IMG/VR virus record: IMGVR_UViG_3300033489_000003
Location: 32,001 to 96,000 of that record
Direction: 5' to 3' (one strand)
Origin: a virus
Length of the DNA stretch: 64,000 bases
Both the position numbers and the translations under genes were made by a program. Under the pieces are notes generated by a model, which worked only from the letters and a program-made list of their open reading frames with translations, made no database searches and was not told the origin of the DNA. Positions 31,498 through 60,364 of this stretch are shown in pieces; position 1 is the stretch's first letter, and every line of letters starts with the position of its first letter.

Positions 31498-32851
31498 GTA
31501 GATGCTCCTATCTTCCGTTGCGTCAGCCTTCTGTACTCCCAAACCACCCAACGCCCAACCTCTTCGCCCACTCGCCAGCGGTCCGCGTCACGACGTCCGC
31601 GCCATCCTGGTCAATCTGCGCGATGTCACCGTCCTCGTCACACCACATCCCAAGCTCCTCCTCGTCCGGCCACTGCCGCCACAGCGCGTCGTCCGTCTCG
31701 TCGTAGTTGTCTCGGCATTCGCCCGTCTGCTCGAACAGCGCCGTCCACGCGTCCGCGACGTCGGCCGCGACGACGAGATCGCAGTCGGAGAACTCGAAGA
31801 CGTGGAGGGGGGTCATCGGCCTTCCAGCTTGTCGAGGTCAACGTGTCCGCCTGTCGCAGCAAACAAAGCATCGGTTAGAGTACGCACGCGCGCTTCGGCG
31901 GCTTCAACGCTCTTGAGCAGTTCATCTATGCGCTCTCGCTGGTCCATCGTCTGGTCAAGGAGCGCCTCATTGCATGCATGTGTCCTCGCCTGCGTTGCCT
32001 CCGCCTCGGCCAGCTTCGCCTCGGCGATAGCCGTTCGATTCTCCCGTTCGCATACCGCCTTCTGGTACCACTCCTCTTGCTCGGCCAGCTTCGCGCGCAA
32101 CTCACCCAGCTCGGCCACCAATTCGCGATTGCGCTCTTCCCAGTGCCGGGCGCATCCAGGCGGCGTGGCGCAAACTAAATCCTGGCAGCAGTCCATCTTC
32201 GAGCGCAGCTCGTCTCGCTCCGATTCGACCTCGTCGAACAGGCGGACCATGTCGTTCGCTTGCGTGCGCACCGTTTCTAGTTGTGCTCGCAGCTCTTCAA
32301 TGGTTCTCGACTGAACCGACCGAATCACCCCATCAACGTTCTCCAAGCCTTCGGCGATACGGTTGATGCTCTGCGTGGCAGGGTGAAATACGCGCGCCTC
32401 GGATTCCTTGAGCGCTTCGCGCAGCTCGTCTCGCTCGGCAATTAGCTTCGCAAACTGCGCGTCGGAGGCAAGGTCGCTGGCAATTGCGTCGTCACGCTCC
32501 ACGGTCAGGTCGTCCACCATGCGAATCAGCCCGCCGAGAATGTTCCCAGCCACGGCATGGCCGGAGGCGTGACGACTGCGCGCGACGGTGAGAATCTTCT
32601 CGTCTTGACCTCCGTCCTGAGGCTCAGACACGACCACCGTTCCGCGGCCGTCGCACCGCGGGCACGTCGTTCGCTCGTCCCACACAGACGGTTCTGGTGC
32701 CGACGAAGCGAGCACAGTGACGTCCAGCGGACCCGCTTGCTCAACGCGTCGCTGGAATCGCGCGCCTGGCACTTCGGGCGGTGACTCAGCTGGCTTGAAC
32801 ACGCCAACGCCGCACGCTCGACTAATGTGCAATTCGCCGCATAGGCTACAC

Positions 32852-55095: not shown

Positions 55096-56672
55096 CGGCC
55101 CGCACGGTCTTCGGGTACTCTGTCGACGCCTCGGCGATCGATTGGTACGGGCGCTGCTCGACCAGAGAAGCTGCCATCGCTGAAGCACCGGTTTTTCTGG
55201 AACTCTGCCCGGGTGATGTTTTCTATGTTTGTCGCGGCGAATACGCGTCCCCGTCCGACCACGTGCCGAGCGCCTTCCACCTGAAGGACTGGATCGTCAC
55301 GGCGATGGAAGAGTCGCTCGACGATCGCAACAGCATGGATGACCAGGGATTCGACGTGAAGGAAGGCGCGTTCGAAGAACTCGAGGCGTATCTGAAAACG
55401 TGGTCGGAGAAGAATCTGTCGGCAAGAAAATGGTTGCTGCAAGGGGAGCCCGAAAGAATCCAATTTGGAAGTGGTGTCAACGGTATTGCGGCGGGGATTG
55501 AAAAGGAGAGCGCGTGATGTTCTACGTTGAGTGTCTTCTAATCGCCGCAGCAGGCGTATCCGGATACTTCGTCGGCTGGGTCCTTACGCGCGAGCAGGGC
55601 AAGCAAAATGCGATGCGGCTGTGTGCCTTGCAGCATCGTCTAGACCTCGCACTCGAGAAAGCGGCGCGACGCGTATCGCTGCCGCCGGCCCCCGCGGCGT
55701 TGGCGCTCGACGCCACCATCGCGTACCAGATCGCGCAACGCGAGGCCGCGCAGCGAGTGCCGGCCGAGATGGTGTTCCTAAGCCTCAGCACGGAGATTTC
55801 GCAGCCGATATTCGGCGATTTCCCGCGGCTCATTGACGACAATGACGTGCTGGTTATTCGGCACGATTGGGGGAAAAACTAGGATGAAACTCACCGTAAA
55901 CGTCAAGCTAACGCCCGCCGAACTGGCAGCCGCGTTCTGCGAACTGGACGATGAGGCGCAGGCGCAGTTCTTCATCGACGCCGCTCGCATTGCTGAGACG
56001 TGGGGCGGCGCCGGGCCGGCGATGCAGTGGTTCACGGTCGGCAGGCATCTAAAAACGTGCGCGTGTTCGACGTACGAAGCGCGCGCGATGGTGCGCGAGA
56101 TAGCTGACGCGATCGAAATGGAGACCGCATGATCCGCACCGTAACCGCCATCCCGCTCGCGATCGCCGCTGGCGTCGTCACGTTCGTCGGCGTCCTGCGG
56201 CTCGCGCGGCAGGAGATGAAGAGAGAGCGGCTCGCGGCACCGCCAATCACTCTCACGCCGCATGAGCACCGCACTGTTTTGCAATACAGGGGTCGCAAAT
56301 TCCTCCAGCGTTTTCTGGTGAAGCGATGACGAAGCGTAAGCCGTTCCATAGTTGGAGACTACTCGCGCAGTCTGGGTCACGCCGGTGGGCGATCGACACG
56401 GACGACAAGGAGGGTATCGAAGGGCTACTACCGCCGCTGCCGCCCTTTGATGAACTCGTCATCCGAGACGCGCCAGCCGTCCACCTTGAGCGCATGGACA
56501 CGCGGCACCTGCACATCCAGATCGGCGACGTGACGCTGTCGGCATGGGTCGACCGCGCTGGCAAAACTCGCCTCCGTCTCATCGATGGCAAGTTCGTCCC
56601 TCGGACCTGGGACATCGTGCCGCTGGACGATGGTGAGCTCGTGCGTGGCGTGCGGAGTAAGCGGGGCAAGCG

Positions 56673-56951
56673 ATGAAGACCTGTTCCAAGTGCCACGACG
56701 CAAAGCCGCTCGCGTGCTTCGGCCTTCAGTCCACGTCCGCATGCGGGAGACGCGCCGCGTGCCGCCTCTGCGAAGCGGAGCGGATGCGCGGATACAGAGC
56801 CAGCGGCGCTGGCGTGAACGCCAAAGGCACGGGCGGGCTGTCGCATCGCGAGATCGCGCGGCGGCTTGGGATGAGTAAATCGAGAATCCAACAACTCGAG
56901 GCGTCGGCCATGCGCAAGCTGCGGGCGGCGCTCGCGGAGGGCTGGAGATGA
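56673..56951 (+). CDS. Zn finger + sigma70 region 4 protein
   Basis: CSKC...CRLC; LSHREIARRLGMSKSRIQQLEASAMRKLR. Confidence 0.75.
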   Translation: MKTCSKCHDAKPLACFGLQSTSACGRRAACRLCEAERMRGYRASGAGVNAKGTGGLSHREIARRLGMSKSRIQQLEASAMRKLRAALAEGWR

Positions 56952-58789
56952 GCGCCAAGGAGATCGCGCAGGTCGTTGCAGGTGAGCGCAAATGGCATGT
57001 CGAGCAAGGCGATTGCCGCGATCTCCTCCGTCTCCTACAAGACAACTGCGTCGACGCCATCGTGATCGATCTGCCATACGAAATTGGATTCATGTCAGCG
57101 ACGTGGGACCGCACCGGCATCGCGTTCGATGTCGCGATGTGGAAAGAGGCGCTGCGCGTTCTCAAGCCAGGCGGTCACATTCTCTCGTTCGGCGGCACGC
57201 GCACCTATCACCGTATGGCGTGCGCGATTGAGGACGCCGGCGCTTGGTTTCGTGATCAAATTGATTGGTTATATGCACAAGGAATGCCGAAAGGACAGAA
57301 TGTCAATAAGTTTGCCTACGGCGTCTGTCGTTGTGAAGAGGTATCCCAACACGACGTGTCGCGTGTGCGGTCGTCCGACGTACAAACGTCCTTACCAGTT
57401 GGCGATGGGGAAGGGTCTGTACTGTTCGAGGGGCTGCCGGAACAAGGCCCATCCACAGAAGGGGAGGTGCCCGCCGCGTCCTTACATGCGTGGAGCCCTC
57501 AACCCGGCATGGAAGGGTGGCGTGACGATTCGGAAGGCCCACGGGAACTACAAGGGCGGTCGCTACGTGCGGTGTCCGCCGGAACTGCTGACGATGGCGC
57601 GCCCGGACAAGTATATAGCGGAGCATCGACTGGTGATGGCGCGGTTGGTGGGCAGACCCTTGACGAGCGTCGAGGTAGTTCACCACGAAAACCACGACTC
57701 CCACGACAACGCGCCAAAGAACCTAGAACTTTGGCCAGACAACAGGAGTCACAAGCTAGCGGAGCATGGCCGATTTGTGGAAGGTGCGGCCAACCTCGTC
57801 TTGCCACGGGTCTTGGCACTGGTCTGAAGCCATCTCATGAGCCGATCGCCATGGCGATGAAGCCGCTCGACGGCACATTCGAGCACAACGTCCGCAAGTG
57901 GGGAACGGGCGCGATCAATGTTGACGCGTGTCGAGTTGGAACCATTGGTGGCACCCATAAATTTGATGCACCAAAAGACTCATCAGTTGGTGTTTTTGGC
58001 GACGGGCTAAATGGTGGCGGAGGTAAGGGGAGAGAAATAGATGCCGGCCGCTGGCCCGCAAATCTCATCCTCTCGCACGCAGAAGGCTGCCAGCGCGTCG
58101 GTGTCCGCAAAGTCAAAGTCGCGCCGCCGTGGAACGATAACCGGCCACCTTCGCTCTTCACTGGCGCGGAGACGTCACCGGTGCACCACACGGACGGCGA
58201 CGGATTCGAGACGGTGGACGACTACCGCTGCGTCGAAGGGTGCCCAGTGGGGATGTTGGATGGGCAGAGCGGGGTGAGCGGACCAAGCGGTCGCCCTAAC
58301 AGTTACGGCAATGTGTACCGCAATACCGGGTTCGGTGATTTTGGTCACAGCGAGTACCACAACCTGCATCTAGACTCAGGCGGCGCCTCTCGCTACTTCA
58401 CCACGTTCCCCTACGAGCCGTTCTTTTACGAGCCGAAAGCGTCGCAGGCAGAACGGGAGCGCGGCTGCGAGTGGATGGACGAGGAAGTCGTCGACGACGG
58501 GCGTCACACGCCGAACGACACGCCCTACCAGCGCGGCAAGAAGAAGCGGAAGAACACGCACACGACGGTGAAGCCCGTCGGCGTGATCCGCTGGTGCACG
58601 CGTCTCGTGTGCCGTCGCGGCGGCCTCGTGCTCGACATGACATGCGGGAGCGGTACCGGTGGGATCGCGGCGCTCGCCGAGGGCTGTCGCTGGATCGGTT
58701 TTGAGCTCAAGCCGAAGCACGTTGAAATCGCCATCGCGCGAATCATCGGCGACGCGCCGCTGCTTAACACGATCGGAGCCGTCCGATGA
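56948..58789 (+). CDS. N6/N4 DNA methyltransferase with a large insertion
   Basis: GDC, DLPY (variant of DPPY), RVLKPGG, LKPSHEPI, GRWPAN, H.TVKP, DMTCGSGT. Confidence 0.88.
   Translation: MSAKEIAQVVAGERKWHVEQGDCRDLLRLLQDNCVDAIVIDLPYEIGFMSATWDRTGIAFDVAMWKEALRVLKPGGHILSFGGTRTYHRMACAIEDAGAWFRDQIDWLYAQGMPKGQNVNKFAYGVCRCEEVSQHDVSRVRSSDVQTSLPVGDGEGSVLFEGLPEQGPSTEGEVPAASLHAWSPQPGMEGWRDDSEGPRELQGRSLRAVSAGTADDGAPGQVYSGASTGDGAVGGQTLDERRGSSPRKPRLPRQRAKEPRTLARQQESQASGAWPICGRCGQPRLATGLGTGLKPSHEPIAMAMKPLDGTFEHNVRKWGTGAINVDACRVGTIGGTHKFDAPKDSSVGVFGDGLNGGGGKGREIDAGRWPANLILSHAEGCQRVGVRKVKVAPPWNDNRPPSLFTGAETSPVHHTDGDGFETVDDYRCVEGCPVGMLDGQSGVSGPSGRPNSYGNVYRNTGFGDFGHSEYHNLHLDSGGASRYFTTFPYEPFFYEPKASQAERERGCEWMDEEVVDDGRHTPNDTPYQRGKKKRKNTHTTVKPVGVIRWCTRLVCRRGGLVLDMTCGSGTGGIAALAEGCRWIGFELKPKHVEIAIARIIGDAPLLNTIGAVR
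57333..57827 (+). CDS. HNH endonuclease nested in the +1 frame inside the methyltransferase
   Basis: CRVCG..YCSRGC, NPAWKGG, YIAEHRLVMA..VGRPL...EVVHHEN....DN...NLEL; alternative start 57300. Confidence 0.88.
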   Translation: MKRYPNTTCRVCGRPTYKRPYQLAMGKGLYCSRGCRNKAHPQKGRCPPRPYMRGALNPAWKGGVTIRKAHGNYKGGRYVRCPPELLTMARPDKYIAEHRLVMARLVGRPLTSVEVVHHENHDSHDNAPKNLELWPDNRSHKLAEHGRFVEGAANLVLPRVLALV

Positions 58790-59460
58790 TCCACCCGGTC
58801 CGCTGCCTCCAGCGCCACCAATCGACTTATTTGAGCGACGTCATCAATCGAGACGGCAGCATCTCGCACTTGTGCGGAGACTGTCAGCGCGAGGCAAGCG
58901 ACCAGCTCGTTTTGGTCAACCTCGTCCGTCTGCTTTTTAAGAGGTCGAGCGAGCTGACGGCGGATGAGCGGAAGGAGAGTGGGACGTGAGAACAGCGCCC
59001 CCTTGTCCGCCGCACGTCATTGACGCGATCAATTCCGCGATGAAAGACGCATATATCGCAGGGCTCAAGGACGGGTTAGCGGTTGCCGAGAACATTCGTG
59101 GCTGGCTCACTAGAGAGCCTGACACCAACAGGCAAGCCGAGGCCCGAGCGTGGGCGGACGCGGCAATTGAGCGAGCGAAGAAAAGAGTGTTGCTATGAGG
59201 GATCGCTGGAAAGACACCAGTTCCTGGAGCCAGCGCGACCCGTCGGATCTTCGCGTCCCAAAGGAGTGGACTCTTCGCACGGCCAACGTCCGAATCGTCG
59301 TGCACCATCACATGGATTACGAGCCCGACCGGTGGTTCTGCTCCGCGTATCCGTTGTTCGACATGCAAGGTCTGATGGCTGGCGACGCTGAGGCGGCCAA
59401 GGCTGAGGCTGTGGAGCTCGTTGGACAGTGGTTGCGGACGGCGCTGAGGGGGCTGGAGAC

Positions 59461-59880
59461 ATGATCGTTCTTGTTACAGGAGGTCGTGACTTCGCCGACG
59501 AAGCGCTGCTGTATGCGACGCTCGACCGCGTCCACGCGGAGACGCCCATCCTTGCCGTCATCCACGGCGGATGCCACGAGCGCGGCAAGTCGGAGTTCTG
59601 TGGTGCCGATGGGCTGGCTGACGATTGGGCGAAGAGCCGCGGCGTGCGCGTTGAGCCGTATCCGGTCAGCGATGAGGAAGGGGAGCGAAAGGGGAAGCGT
59701 GCGGGGCCTGAGCGAAACGGCTTCTGCGTTGGTCGCCTGGCCACGCTGGCTGGGTCGCTGGGCGCCGAGAAGCTGTGCGTGGCGTTTCCCACGGGCGGAC
59801 CTGGCACGCGCGACTGCATGCGGCAGGCGCGCGGCGCGCGGGTTGAGGTTGTTGTGATTGAGGGCGGTGAGCATGCTTAG
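59461..59880 (+). CDS. DUF2493/YspA-related SLOG family protein
   Basis: VLVTGGRDF, IHGG..GAD.LA..WA, AGPERN, VAFP.GG.GT. Confidence 0.85.
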   Translation: MIVLVTGGRDFADEALLYATLDRVHAETPILAVIHGGCHERGKSEFCGADGLADDWAKSRGVRVEPYPVSDEEGERKGKRAGPERNGFCVGRLATLAGSLGAEKLCVAFPTGGPGTRDCMRQARGARVEVVVIEGGEHA

Positions 59881-60364
59881 CTTCCGCATCGACGGAGAGA
59901 GGCTGTTGCACGACAACCGTTATACCGATAGGAGCGACGCTGGTTTCCGTGCCTACATCAGTTCAATCGCGTACTGTTGCGAGTTCAGTCTTTGGGACTG
60001 CCTTGTAACTAGGGACGCGACGTGGATGTTCAGTAGGCCGGAATGCCTTGAAGCTGTCGAAGAGGAACTATTTCGTGCCCGATTGTGGGTAGTGGACGGC
60101 CGCACGCTGCAAGTCTTTGGCAAAGGCAAATTGTTCGAGCTCGTAGCGAGAGAGCCAATCTCAAAGGCTCTGCGAGCAAAAGTGGTTGCTCGCGACGGGC
60201 TACTGTGCGGTATCTGCGGTGGCGACGTCGAGTACAATGATGTTCACCTCGACCACGTCAGACCTGTGCTGCTTGGCGGACCTACAGTCGCGTCGAATCT
60301 GCGCGTGACTCATTCTCAGTGCAACTTGCGACGCCCGAAGCGGCCGGAGGAATTTATCCAATGA
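59873..60364 (+). CDS. HNH endonuclease with an initiator-like N-terminus
   Basis: RDG..CGICG..HLDHV.P...GG....NLR..HSQCN. Confidence 0.85.
   Translation: MLSFRIDGERLLHDNRYTDRSDAGFRAYISSIAYCCEFSLWDCLVTRDATWMFSRPECLEAVEEELFRARLWVVDGRTLQVFGKGKLFELVAREPISKALRAKVVARDGLLCGICGGDVEYNDVHLDHVRPVLLGGPTVASNLRVTHSQCNLRRPKRPEEFIQ

Follow-up and report, generated by a model that had tools for sequence, protein, structure and literature searches.

Homing endonuclease genes usually survive within other genes as parts of introns or inteins, which are later spliced out. The locus described here raises the question of how such a gene could persist in a coding sequence that shows no splicing element. It lies in a stretch of viral DNA of 64,000 nucleotides (the window; positions 32,001 to 96,000 of IMG/VR record IMGVR_UViG_3300033489_000003); the virus record, from a soil-metagenome assembly, is 104.6 kb long and rated complete by CheckV. 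An earlier note on this DNA had proposed that a DNA methyltransferase (MTase) gene of the window carries a complete HNH endonuclease gene in its +1 frame while its own frame stays open. Our analysis favors, with a probability of about 0.8, the explanation that a homing cassette with a hidden HNH gene resides here free of splicing: the MTase would be read through it, bearing the insert as a cysteine-clasped loop, and the nuclease would be made as a separate protein. The family, for which 375 metagenomic relatives were found, represents a third way of survival at scale: the element would be borne by the host protein as a loop, and both frames of one and the same DNA are under selection.

Overlapping methyltransferase and endonuclease frames

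The host open reading frame (ORF; Table 1) matched PF01555 well above the Pfam threshold (8e-24, 85.2 bits, cut-off 26.7) and PHROG 67 at 3e-60. Motif IV (DLPY), at the N-terminal end, and motif I (GSGTG), at the C-terminal end, were both intact; AlphaFold2 (AF2) modelled the MTase core with a predicted local distance difference test score (pLDDT) above 90, and the best Foldseek matches of the model were CcrM (6pbd), M.RsrI and M.BceJIV. Pfam score, motif order and fold all place the enzyme in the beta class of N6/N4 methyltransferases.

The nested ORF runs from ATG 57300 to a TGA at 57825-57827 and comprises an N-terminal four-cysteine zinc finger, an NPAWKGG motif and an HNH core. It matched PHROG 20891 at 8e-16. 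Across 52 sequences the four zinc-finger cysteines were invariant and the five core columns listed in Table 1 invariant or nearly so, and the window retains every family-invariant residue. The AF2 model of the HNH protein had a mean pLDDT of 80.6 (92-98 in the core) and showed the His...Asn...His/Asn motif on a beta-beta-alpha core that defines the HNH/His-Me finger nucleases. In a wide VIA-align search the model was closest to I-HmuI of phage SPO1 (PDB 1u3e), followed by other His-Me nucleases, with I-PpoI, McrA, GVE2 HNH and colicin E9 among the further top matches. Over the 80 residues aligned with I-HmuI, identity was 18% and the Z score of 5.7 was modest; both proteins combine an HNH core with N-terminal DNA-binding elements, but I-HmuI is encoded in a group I intron. 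A Foldseek search of the PDB with the model yielded nothing at E<=0.001 (I-HmuI ranked fifth, E 1.6), and a profile of the HNH alignment matched nothing meaningful among the sequences of solved structures. The family profile, the invariant residues and the model bear out the claim that the HNH ORF is complete.

Table 1. Position and supporting evidence of the features at the MTase locus (coordinates of the window)
Feature	Position	Strand	Evidence
Beta-class N6/N4 DNA methyltransferase, 613 aa, single uninterrupted ORF	56948..58789	+	ORF list, PF01555, PHROG 67
Shine-Dalgarno-like AAAGGA, 4 nt upstream of ATG 57300, within host Lys-Gly codons	57290..57295	+	sequence, start survey
HNH homing-endonuclease ORF, 175 aa, frame +1 relative to the MTase	57300..57827	+	ORF list, PHROG 20891, PF13392, AF2
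Cassette in the MTase frame, residues 122-287, replacing a native loop of ~65 aa, predicted disordered except at both ends	57311..57808	+	alignment, loop census, AF2
Host-frame Cys pair 1 (CRC; C127, C129)	57326..57334	+	both Cys invariant in 26 aligned loci
Four-Cys zinc finger of the HNH protein, N-terminal (C20, C23, C42, C46)	57357..57440	+	invariant Cys, pLDDT 88-94
HNH catalytic core (H129, H132, N141, N148, H151)	57672..57755	+	conserved columns, pLDDT 94-98, I-HmuI alignment
Host-frame Trp and Cys pair 2 (W274, C277, C280, P283), two-frame constraint	57767..57796	+	conservation, frozen synonymous sites

The MTase frame is free of stops over the approximately 500 nt that code for this complete HNH protein. 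In the stop-avoidance test that the earlier note had asked for, the HNH protein was kept fixed and synonymous codons were drawn according to the codon usage of the locus, using exact dynamic programming. In the window 5.4-6.3 host-frame stops were expected and none was seen, which corresponds to a probability of an open frame, P(open), of 0.0008-0.002. The test was extended to loci found with the HNH protein, namely 9 from viral contigs or genomes, including a Cupriavidus scaffold and a Polaromonas metagenome-assembled genome (MAG), and the best 80 of the 375 metagenomic relatives. In these relatives, whose HNH proteins are 47-64% identical to that of the window and whose GC content ranges from 0.30 to 0.71, the HNH gene invariably occupied the same position within a PF01555-type MTase gene, with the same frame offset. 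The host frame (HNH+2) was stop-free in 76 of 77 distinct loci, with 4 stops observed against 578 expected; in the other forward frame (+1) 705 were observed against 620 expected, and not one of the 77 loci was open. Homologues with stops in the MTase frame, which would have contradicted the earlier note, were looked for here, and the reading withstood the search. The open host frame is non-random and is held by selection, not by a high GC content.

All 4 observed stops fell in a single locus (L028:1100-1620), where the HNH ORF has stayed intact while all that is left of the MTase is an N-terminal remnant plus, shifted in frame, a vestige of the Cys-pair end. This locus can be taken as a natural control, showing decay of the open frame after loss of the methylase.

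An alignment of 26 loci in both frames resolved the constraint by zone. As far as 57300, conservation is confined to the host frame; positions 57302-57334 are conserved in neither frame, apart from two host cysteines; between 57335 and 57766 the HNH frame takes precedence, with purely passive conservation of the host frame; between 57767 and 57796 both frames are constrained; and from 57806 on the host frame dominates, the HNH tail drifting to a stop made of Leu-Lys codons. The family offers a natural data set for the constraints of dual coding, which include the avoidance of stops, synonymous sites that are frozen, and signals used by both frames. Gene callers annotate the methylase alone, which leaves nested nucleases of this kind invisible in databases.

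Loop replacement and the host-frame cysteine pairs

The cassette is flanked by the host motifs GMPK..NV.K and G.GTGLKPSHEPI. Insertion-free MTases (P0002, P0003, P0005 and P0008), 58-72% identical to the window enzyme, provided the comparison that the earlier note had called for; for P0002, P0003 and P0005 the overall identity in the alignment was 64-72%. According to the alignment and a loop census, the stretch from GMPK to GLKP comprises 79 conserved residues in these empty relatives versus 184 in the window, and the window retains none of the native loop. The extra stretch of about 500 nt is hence real, but it is not the pure insertion first supposed, since it takes the place of a conserved loop of about 65 residues. 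Such a replacement, which follows from the lack of the native loop in the window, is what would be expected of repair across two conserved flanks. No flanking direct repeat or target-site duplication was found around the insert. A scan of viral contigs with P0002 yielded only relatives of at most 46% identity over the full length, so the cassette junctions given in Table 1 are approximate.

When the whole enzyme was modelled with AF2, the host-frame insert received a pLDDT of 33-40; residues 120-131 and 273-288 were its only stretches of more than a few residues with values above 50. These are the two segments that hold the cysteines. The earlier note had seen a CRC and a CGRC bracketing the insert and suggested that they might clasp it through zinc. 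The brackets proved to be real, the CGRC lying at 57776-57787, and both are located between the host motifs named above. Among the best 120 MTase homologues, all of the roughly 48 with an insert of 180-205 residues had a CxC near its N-terminal end and a W..C..C near its C-terminal end, whereas the paired motif was absent from every insertion-free loop; both pairs were present in 43 of 60 unique DNA loci, and one further insert variant showed a different Cys arrangement.

Two lines of evidence bear on which frame the cysteines serve. Around pair 1 neither the neighboring host residues nor the HNH frame are conserved in the 26 loci. In 23 of the 26 loci with a clear ATG the pair precedes the HNH start, and in about 10 loci an HNH-frame stop separates it from the HNH ORF; as pair 1 is then outside this ORF, nothing but the host protein can benefit from its conservation in such loci. 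To assess pair 2 we compared synonymous sites in 24 loci picked by their HNH-frame residues alone. Phe was encoded by TTT in 24/24 cases as compared with 30/70 elsewhere (p 1e-7), Gly by GGT in 24/24 as compared with 44/341 (p 6e-20), and the codon before had T in its third position in 21/24 (p 6e-16). The frozen synonymous sites are exactly those on which the Cys, Cys and Trp of the host frame depend. Together with the census, these data support the view that the Cys pairs are part of the cassette and that selection acts on them in the host frame. Considering that the two pairs are conserved and occur together, and that they coincide with the confident islands of the model, the two segments probably form a zinc clasp tying the ends of the loop. 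If this clasp is true, it would be a compact module for accommodating long foreign stretches in a protein loop, useful in protein engineering.

The translation signals of the nuclease also appear to be written in host codons. The start at ATG 57300 is not certain: an alternative GTG at 57333, made by the second host Cys codon, matches the start position in some relatives. In most relatives an ATG precedes the first HNH Cys by 9-14 codons, and GGAG or GGT-rich stretches written in host codons often lie ahead of it; the window is devoid of that ATG. The stop TGA is composed from the host Leu-Lys codons of the invariant LKP motif, and the HNH stop falls across host Leu-Lys codons in 38 of about 70 loci. 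In some cassettes (L005, L010, L011, L021 and L045) the host motif is L-R-G-E-x-x-C-G-C; its Arg-Gly-Glu codons form a GGAGG-like ribosome-binding site and its Cys TGT plus G yields the GTG start of the HNH frame, so that this stretch would serve the host protein and the initiation of the nuclease at once.

A broader proposal, towards which the balance tips only slightly, is that the cassette is self-sufficient: it would bring its own host-frame adaptor, composed of a stop-free disordered linker and a four-cysteine zinc clasp, with its Shine-Dalgarno sequence, start and stop built from host-frame codons and the invariant Leu-Lys codons of the target. Such an adaptor would let the cassette replace a surface loop of very different methyltransferases harmlessly.

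Several findings weigh against the explanation preferred here, or against the clasp that forms part of it. A search for sequencing runs containing this DNA listed DNA runs of soil metagenomes and no RNA run. The nested ORF scored 22.4 bits with PF13392 (HNH_3; 9.5e-5), under the Pfam cut-off of 24.8. The loci share ancestry, so the per-locus probabilities (median P(open) 2.6e-4) are not independent; this is offset by HNH identities of just 47-64% and by a +1 frame that behaves as expected. The pLDDT at the Cys islands is just ~64-70. About 7-10 inserts (7 of the 60 unique loci) lack the Cys pairs and keep the native loop ends, which means that a clasp is not obligatory. Finally, in the LRGExxCGC relatives the codons of pair 1 also provide the ribosome site and the GTG start, and the conservation of this pair could partly derive from the start of HNH translation.

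The last two points are the basis of the rival that survives best, which we consider unlikely but worth serious attention: read-through is correct and the Cys pairs are no zinc clasp, pair 1 being a by-product of the HNH start (TGT-G giving a GTG behind the RGE codons that act as Shine-Dalgarno sequence) and pair 2 reflecting constraints of the HNH tail or an unrelated function, for example DNA contact in the target-recognition region. The overlap of RGE codons and GTG recurs in several lineages, and the HNH-frame tail motif GRFV.G is conserved even where the host residues change. Nevertheless, the position of pair 1 ahead of the ATG, or cut off from it by an HNH-frame stop, is at odds with a by-product, and the frozen sites at pair 2 can serve the host frame only; furthermore, the two pairs either co-occur or are both absent, and their segments are the sole AF2 confidence islands of the insert. 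These observations lead us to retain the clasp as the probable role of the cysteines.

Splicing, gene decay and the probable mobility of the cassette

Could the insert be removed after all, at the RNA or protein level, by some undescribed route such as a Cys-dependent, non-Hint protein splicing with catalytic cysteines? Protein-level excision would also require an open frame, which makes it compatible with the stop-avoidance statistics; conserved cysteines lie close to both ends of the insert, and one relative (L003, see below) lies within an intein-like element. At the RNA level, a search of positions 56000-59500 against Rfam at E<=10 returned no intron and no catalytic RNA core of a group I or group II intron, just three chance-level rows of small RNAs and small nucleolar RNAs. 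Selection for an open frame speaks against RNA splicing too, as this process needs none. At the protein level, the host-frame insert had no match in Pfam and no Hint domain, and the HNH ORF takes up the whole insert, leaving no room for a Hint fold; the junctions show no conserved Asn or Cys/Ser/Thr beyond those present in empty alleles, Cys-free variants of the insert exist, and the authors who described a similar arrangement in mycobacteriophages found no splicing signature (PMC11855218). We regard excision as improbable, in agreement with the earlier note, which had seen neither an intein terminus nor an intron core.

Equally improbable is the possibility that the MTase has been inactivated and that its frame stays open for another reason, such as the avoidance of premature termination and of polarity on downstream genes, or a coupling of ribosome traffic to HNH expression. 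The MTase is located in a tightly packed operon, and the methylase carrying the mycobacteriophage counterpart of the cassette is reportedly non-essential. Yet in insert-bearing alleles the MTase flanks are strongly conserved with all catalytic motifs present, and outside the insert the window shares 72% identity with an empty allele; the host-frame selection on Cys and Trp is not accounted for by polarity alone, and stops do arise where the MTase has decayed, as in L028.

A programmed frameshift yielding a fusion of the MTase N-terminus and HNH as the functional nuclease is very improbable: the frames differ by +1 and the HNH frame of the window has no stop in the 78 codons before its ATG, but this openness is not conserved, several relatives having a stop just before the start, most relatives possess their own Shine-Dalgarno sequence and ATG, and no slippery site was seen, none being specifically sought.

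The distribution of the cassette agrees with a homing element. A tree of MTase cores (48 tips, insert columns removed) placed the window as sister to P0002, inside a wholly insertion-free clade, with supports of 0.90-1.0, and the presence of the insert underwent 9 state changes on the 48 tips. Such patchiness, as judged from sequence comparison, is consistent with a mobile element, and the homing claim of the earlier note gains support from a window nested among empty alleles.

The splice-free explanation suggests the following course of events. A mobile HNH gene would have replaced the surface loop after GMPK in a phage DNA methyltransferase, in such a way that the MTase frame, reading position 3 of each HNH codon with positions 1-2 of the next, was kept without stops. 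Ribosomes starting at the MTase ATG would read through to produce one 613-aa enzyme with a disordered loop of about 166 residues, the ends of which would be joined by the CxC...CxxC cluster supplied by the cassette, probably by zinc binding. Internal initiation at ATG 57300, behind AAAGGA, or at GTG 57333 would give the 175-aa nuclease. This protein would then cut insertion-free alleles of co-infecting phages, and repair would copy the cassette across the conserved flanks.

Among the relatives, two loci (L054 and L055) on contig Ga0209223_10000270 (59,672 bp) hold the same cassette-bearing MTase twice, 29.4 kb apart and with identical ORF sizes; this duplication probably represents a circular genome assembled about twice over.

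Comparison with known systems and neighboring genes

An arrangement of this type was published in 2025 for mycobacteriophage methylases. The ShiLan domain is a hidden, out-of-frame HNH in the DNA methylase of these phages (Gosselin et al. 2023, PMC9957025; Arsenault, Gosselin & Gogarten 2025, Genes 16:178, PMC11855218), carried by ShiLan gp65, Mantra gp64 and Filuzino gp74; its methylase frame has no stops, it shows neither intron nor intein, and it is predicted to form a loop (PMC11855218). In a tblastn search the window HNH protein matched the ShiLan, Mantra and Filuzino genes, among others, with 35-38% identity (1e-10 to 1e-14), and the layout was confirmed. The window displays the same set of traits, that is, an extra stretch, a frame open beyond chance, a complete HNH in an alternate frame, no splicing element and a patchy distribution; both systems share a PF01555 host, a homologous HNH and a host-frame product that is disordered or loop-like.

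The two differ in several respects. The window cassette lies between GMPK and GTGLKP, while the ShiLan site, which has a duplicated flank, follows KPSYEPV..KP some 15 residues further downstream; the host frame is HNH+2 in the window and HNH+1 in ShiLan; and the window probably uses an internal start led by a Shine-Dalgarno sequence, in contrast to the leaderless GTG of ShiLan. Regarding the carriers, the lineage of the window comprises a soil phage, proteobacterial prophages (Cupriavidus, Polaromonas MAG) and hundreds of metagenome loci, as opposed to the actinophages that bear ShiLan. Moreover, the window cassette replaces a loop and carries the host-frame CxC...CxxC, while the ShiLan genes are devoid of host-frame Cys pairs. 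The window element is therefore of the same kind as the ShiLan domain, but it is not the same element. The published description (PMC11855218) names zinc only for the fingers of the HNH protein itself, includes no metagenome survey and does not describe the CxC...CxxC pairs. What our work adds is a large lineage outside the actinophages, a new site, strong stop-avoidance statistics and a probable zinc clasp of four cysteines that is unpublished.

Within this context, a locus of the phage Mantra itself (L001:1422-3746, gp64) holds, besides the hidden HNH of ShiLan type, an in-frame LAGLIDADG-type insertion after motif IV with no visible Hint domain, which corresponds to the 'second homing endonuclease' of Gosselin et al. 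2023 (PMC9957025). The insertion in Pacc40 gp60 (PMC11855218) resembles the window in that an out-of-frame nuclease ORF lies in a stop-free insertion of a phage methylase; it differs in having an unrelated and less certain nuclease, another methylase family and another site.

Non-canonical inteins of actinobacteriophages, with an endonuclease in another frame or antisense (bioRxiv 10.1101/2025.01.02.630785), are similar to the window in that the endonuclease ORF overlaps a host-frame linker in which no stop can be allowed. They have a Hint domain to remove the linker, which the window lacks, and the published out-of-frame case is EndoVII-like, not HNH. A combination of both designs appears to exist in L003:2250-4604 (LR756508, an uncultured huge phage with a GC content of 0.41), in which a homologous MTase is interrupted just before GFPKS by an intein-like element. 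This element has a Cys start and a ...GN|S end motif and matches the RecA mini-intein only weakly (E about 2e-3), no Hint domain being detected by Pfam, and an HNH relative of the window family (38-40% identical) lies out of frame in its middle. The host frame is open over 230 codons, where ~14-21 stops would be expected (P 1e-12 to 4e-8). An out-of-frame HNH in an MTase intein is not among the architectures of the actinobacteriophage report (bioRxiv 10.1101/2025.01.02.630785).

The insertion of an HNH gene into a coding gene in the absence of an intron or intein, with retention of host function, has a parallel in phage Aeh1, where the free-standing HNH gene mobE is reported to split nrdA (genes in pieces; Friedrich et al. 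2007). The host gene of Aeh1 is broken into two polypeptides that reassemble, while the MTase frame of the window is continuous.

Turning to the surroundings of the MTase, a small protein encoded immediately upstream (56673-56951, + strand) contains Cys pairs and a sigma-70 region 4 helix-turn-helix (PF04545, 9e-9). The end of its gene overlaps the MTase start as ATGA, and because of this overlap the MTase is probably translationally coupled within the operon. Two genes downstream of the MTase lies a free-standing HNH endonuclease gene (59858-60364, + strand; PF01844 at 2.4e-7) with no kinship to the nested one.

Lastly, the closest relatives of the window MTase, P0004, P0006 and P0007 (754-775 aa), contain a second insertion of about 250 aa directly after motif IV (D-L-P-Y-E-L). 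It has no match in Pfam and is moderately conserved among the three proteins, and it may represent another read-through cassette.

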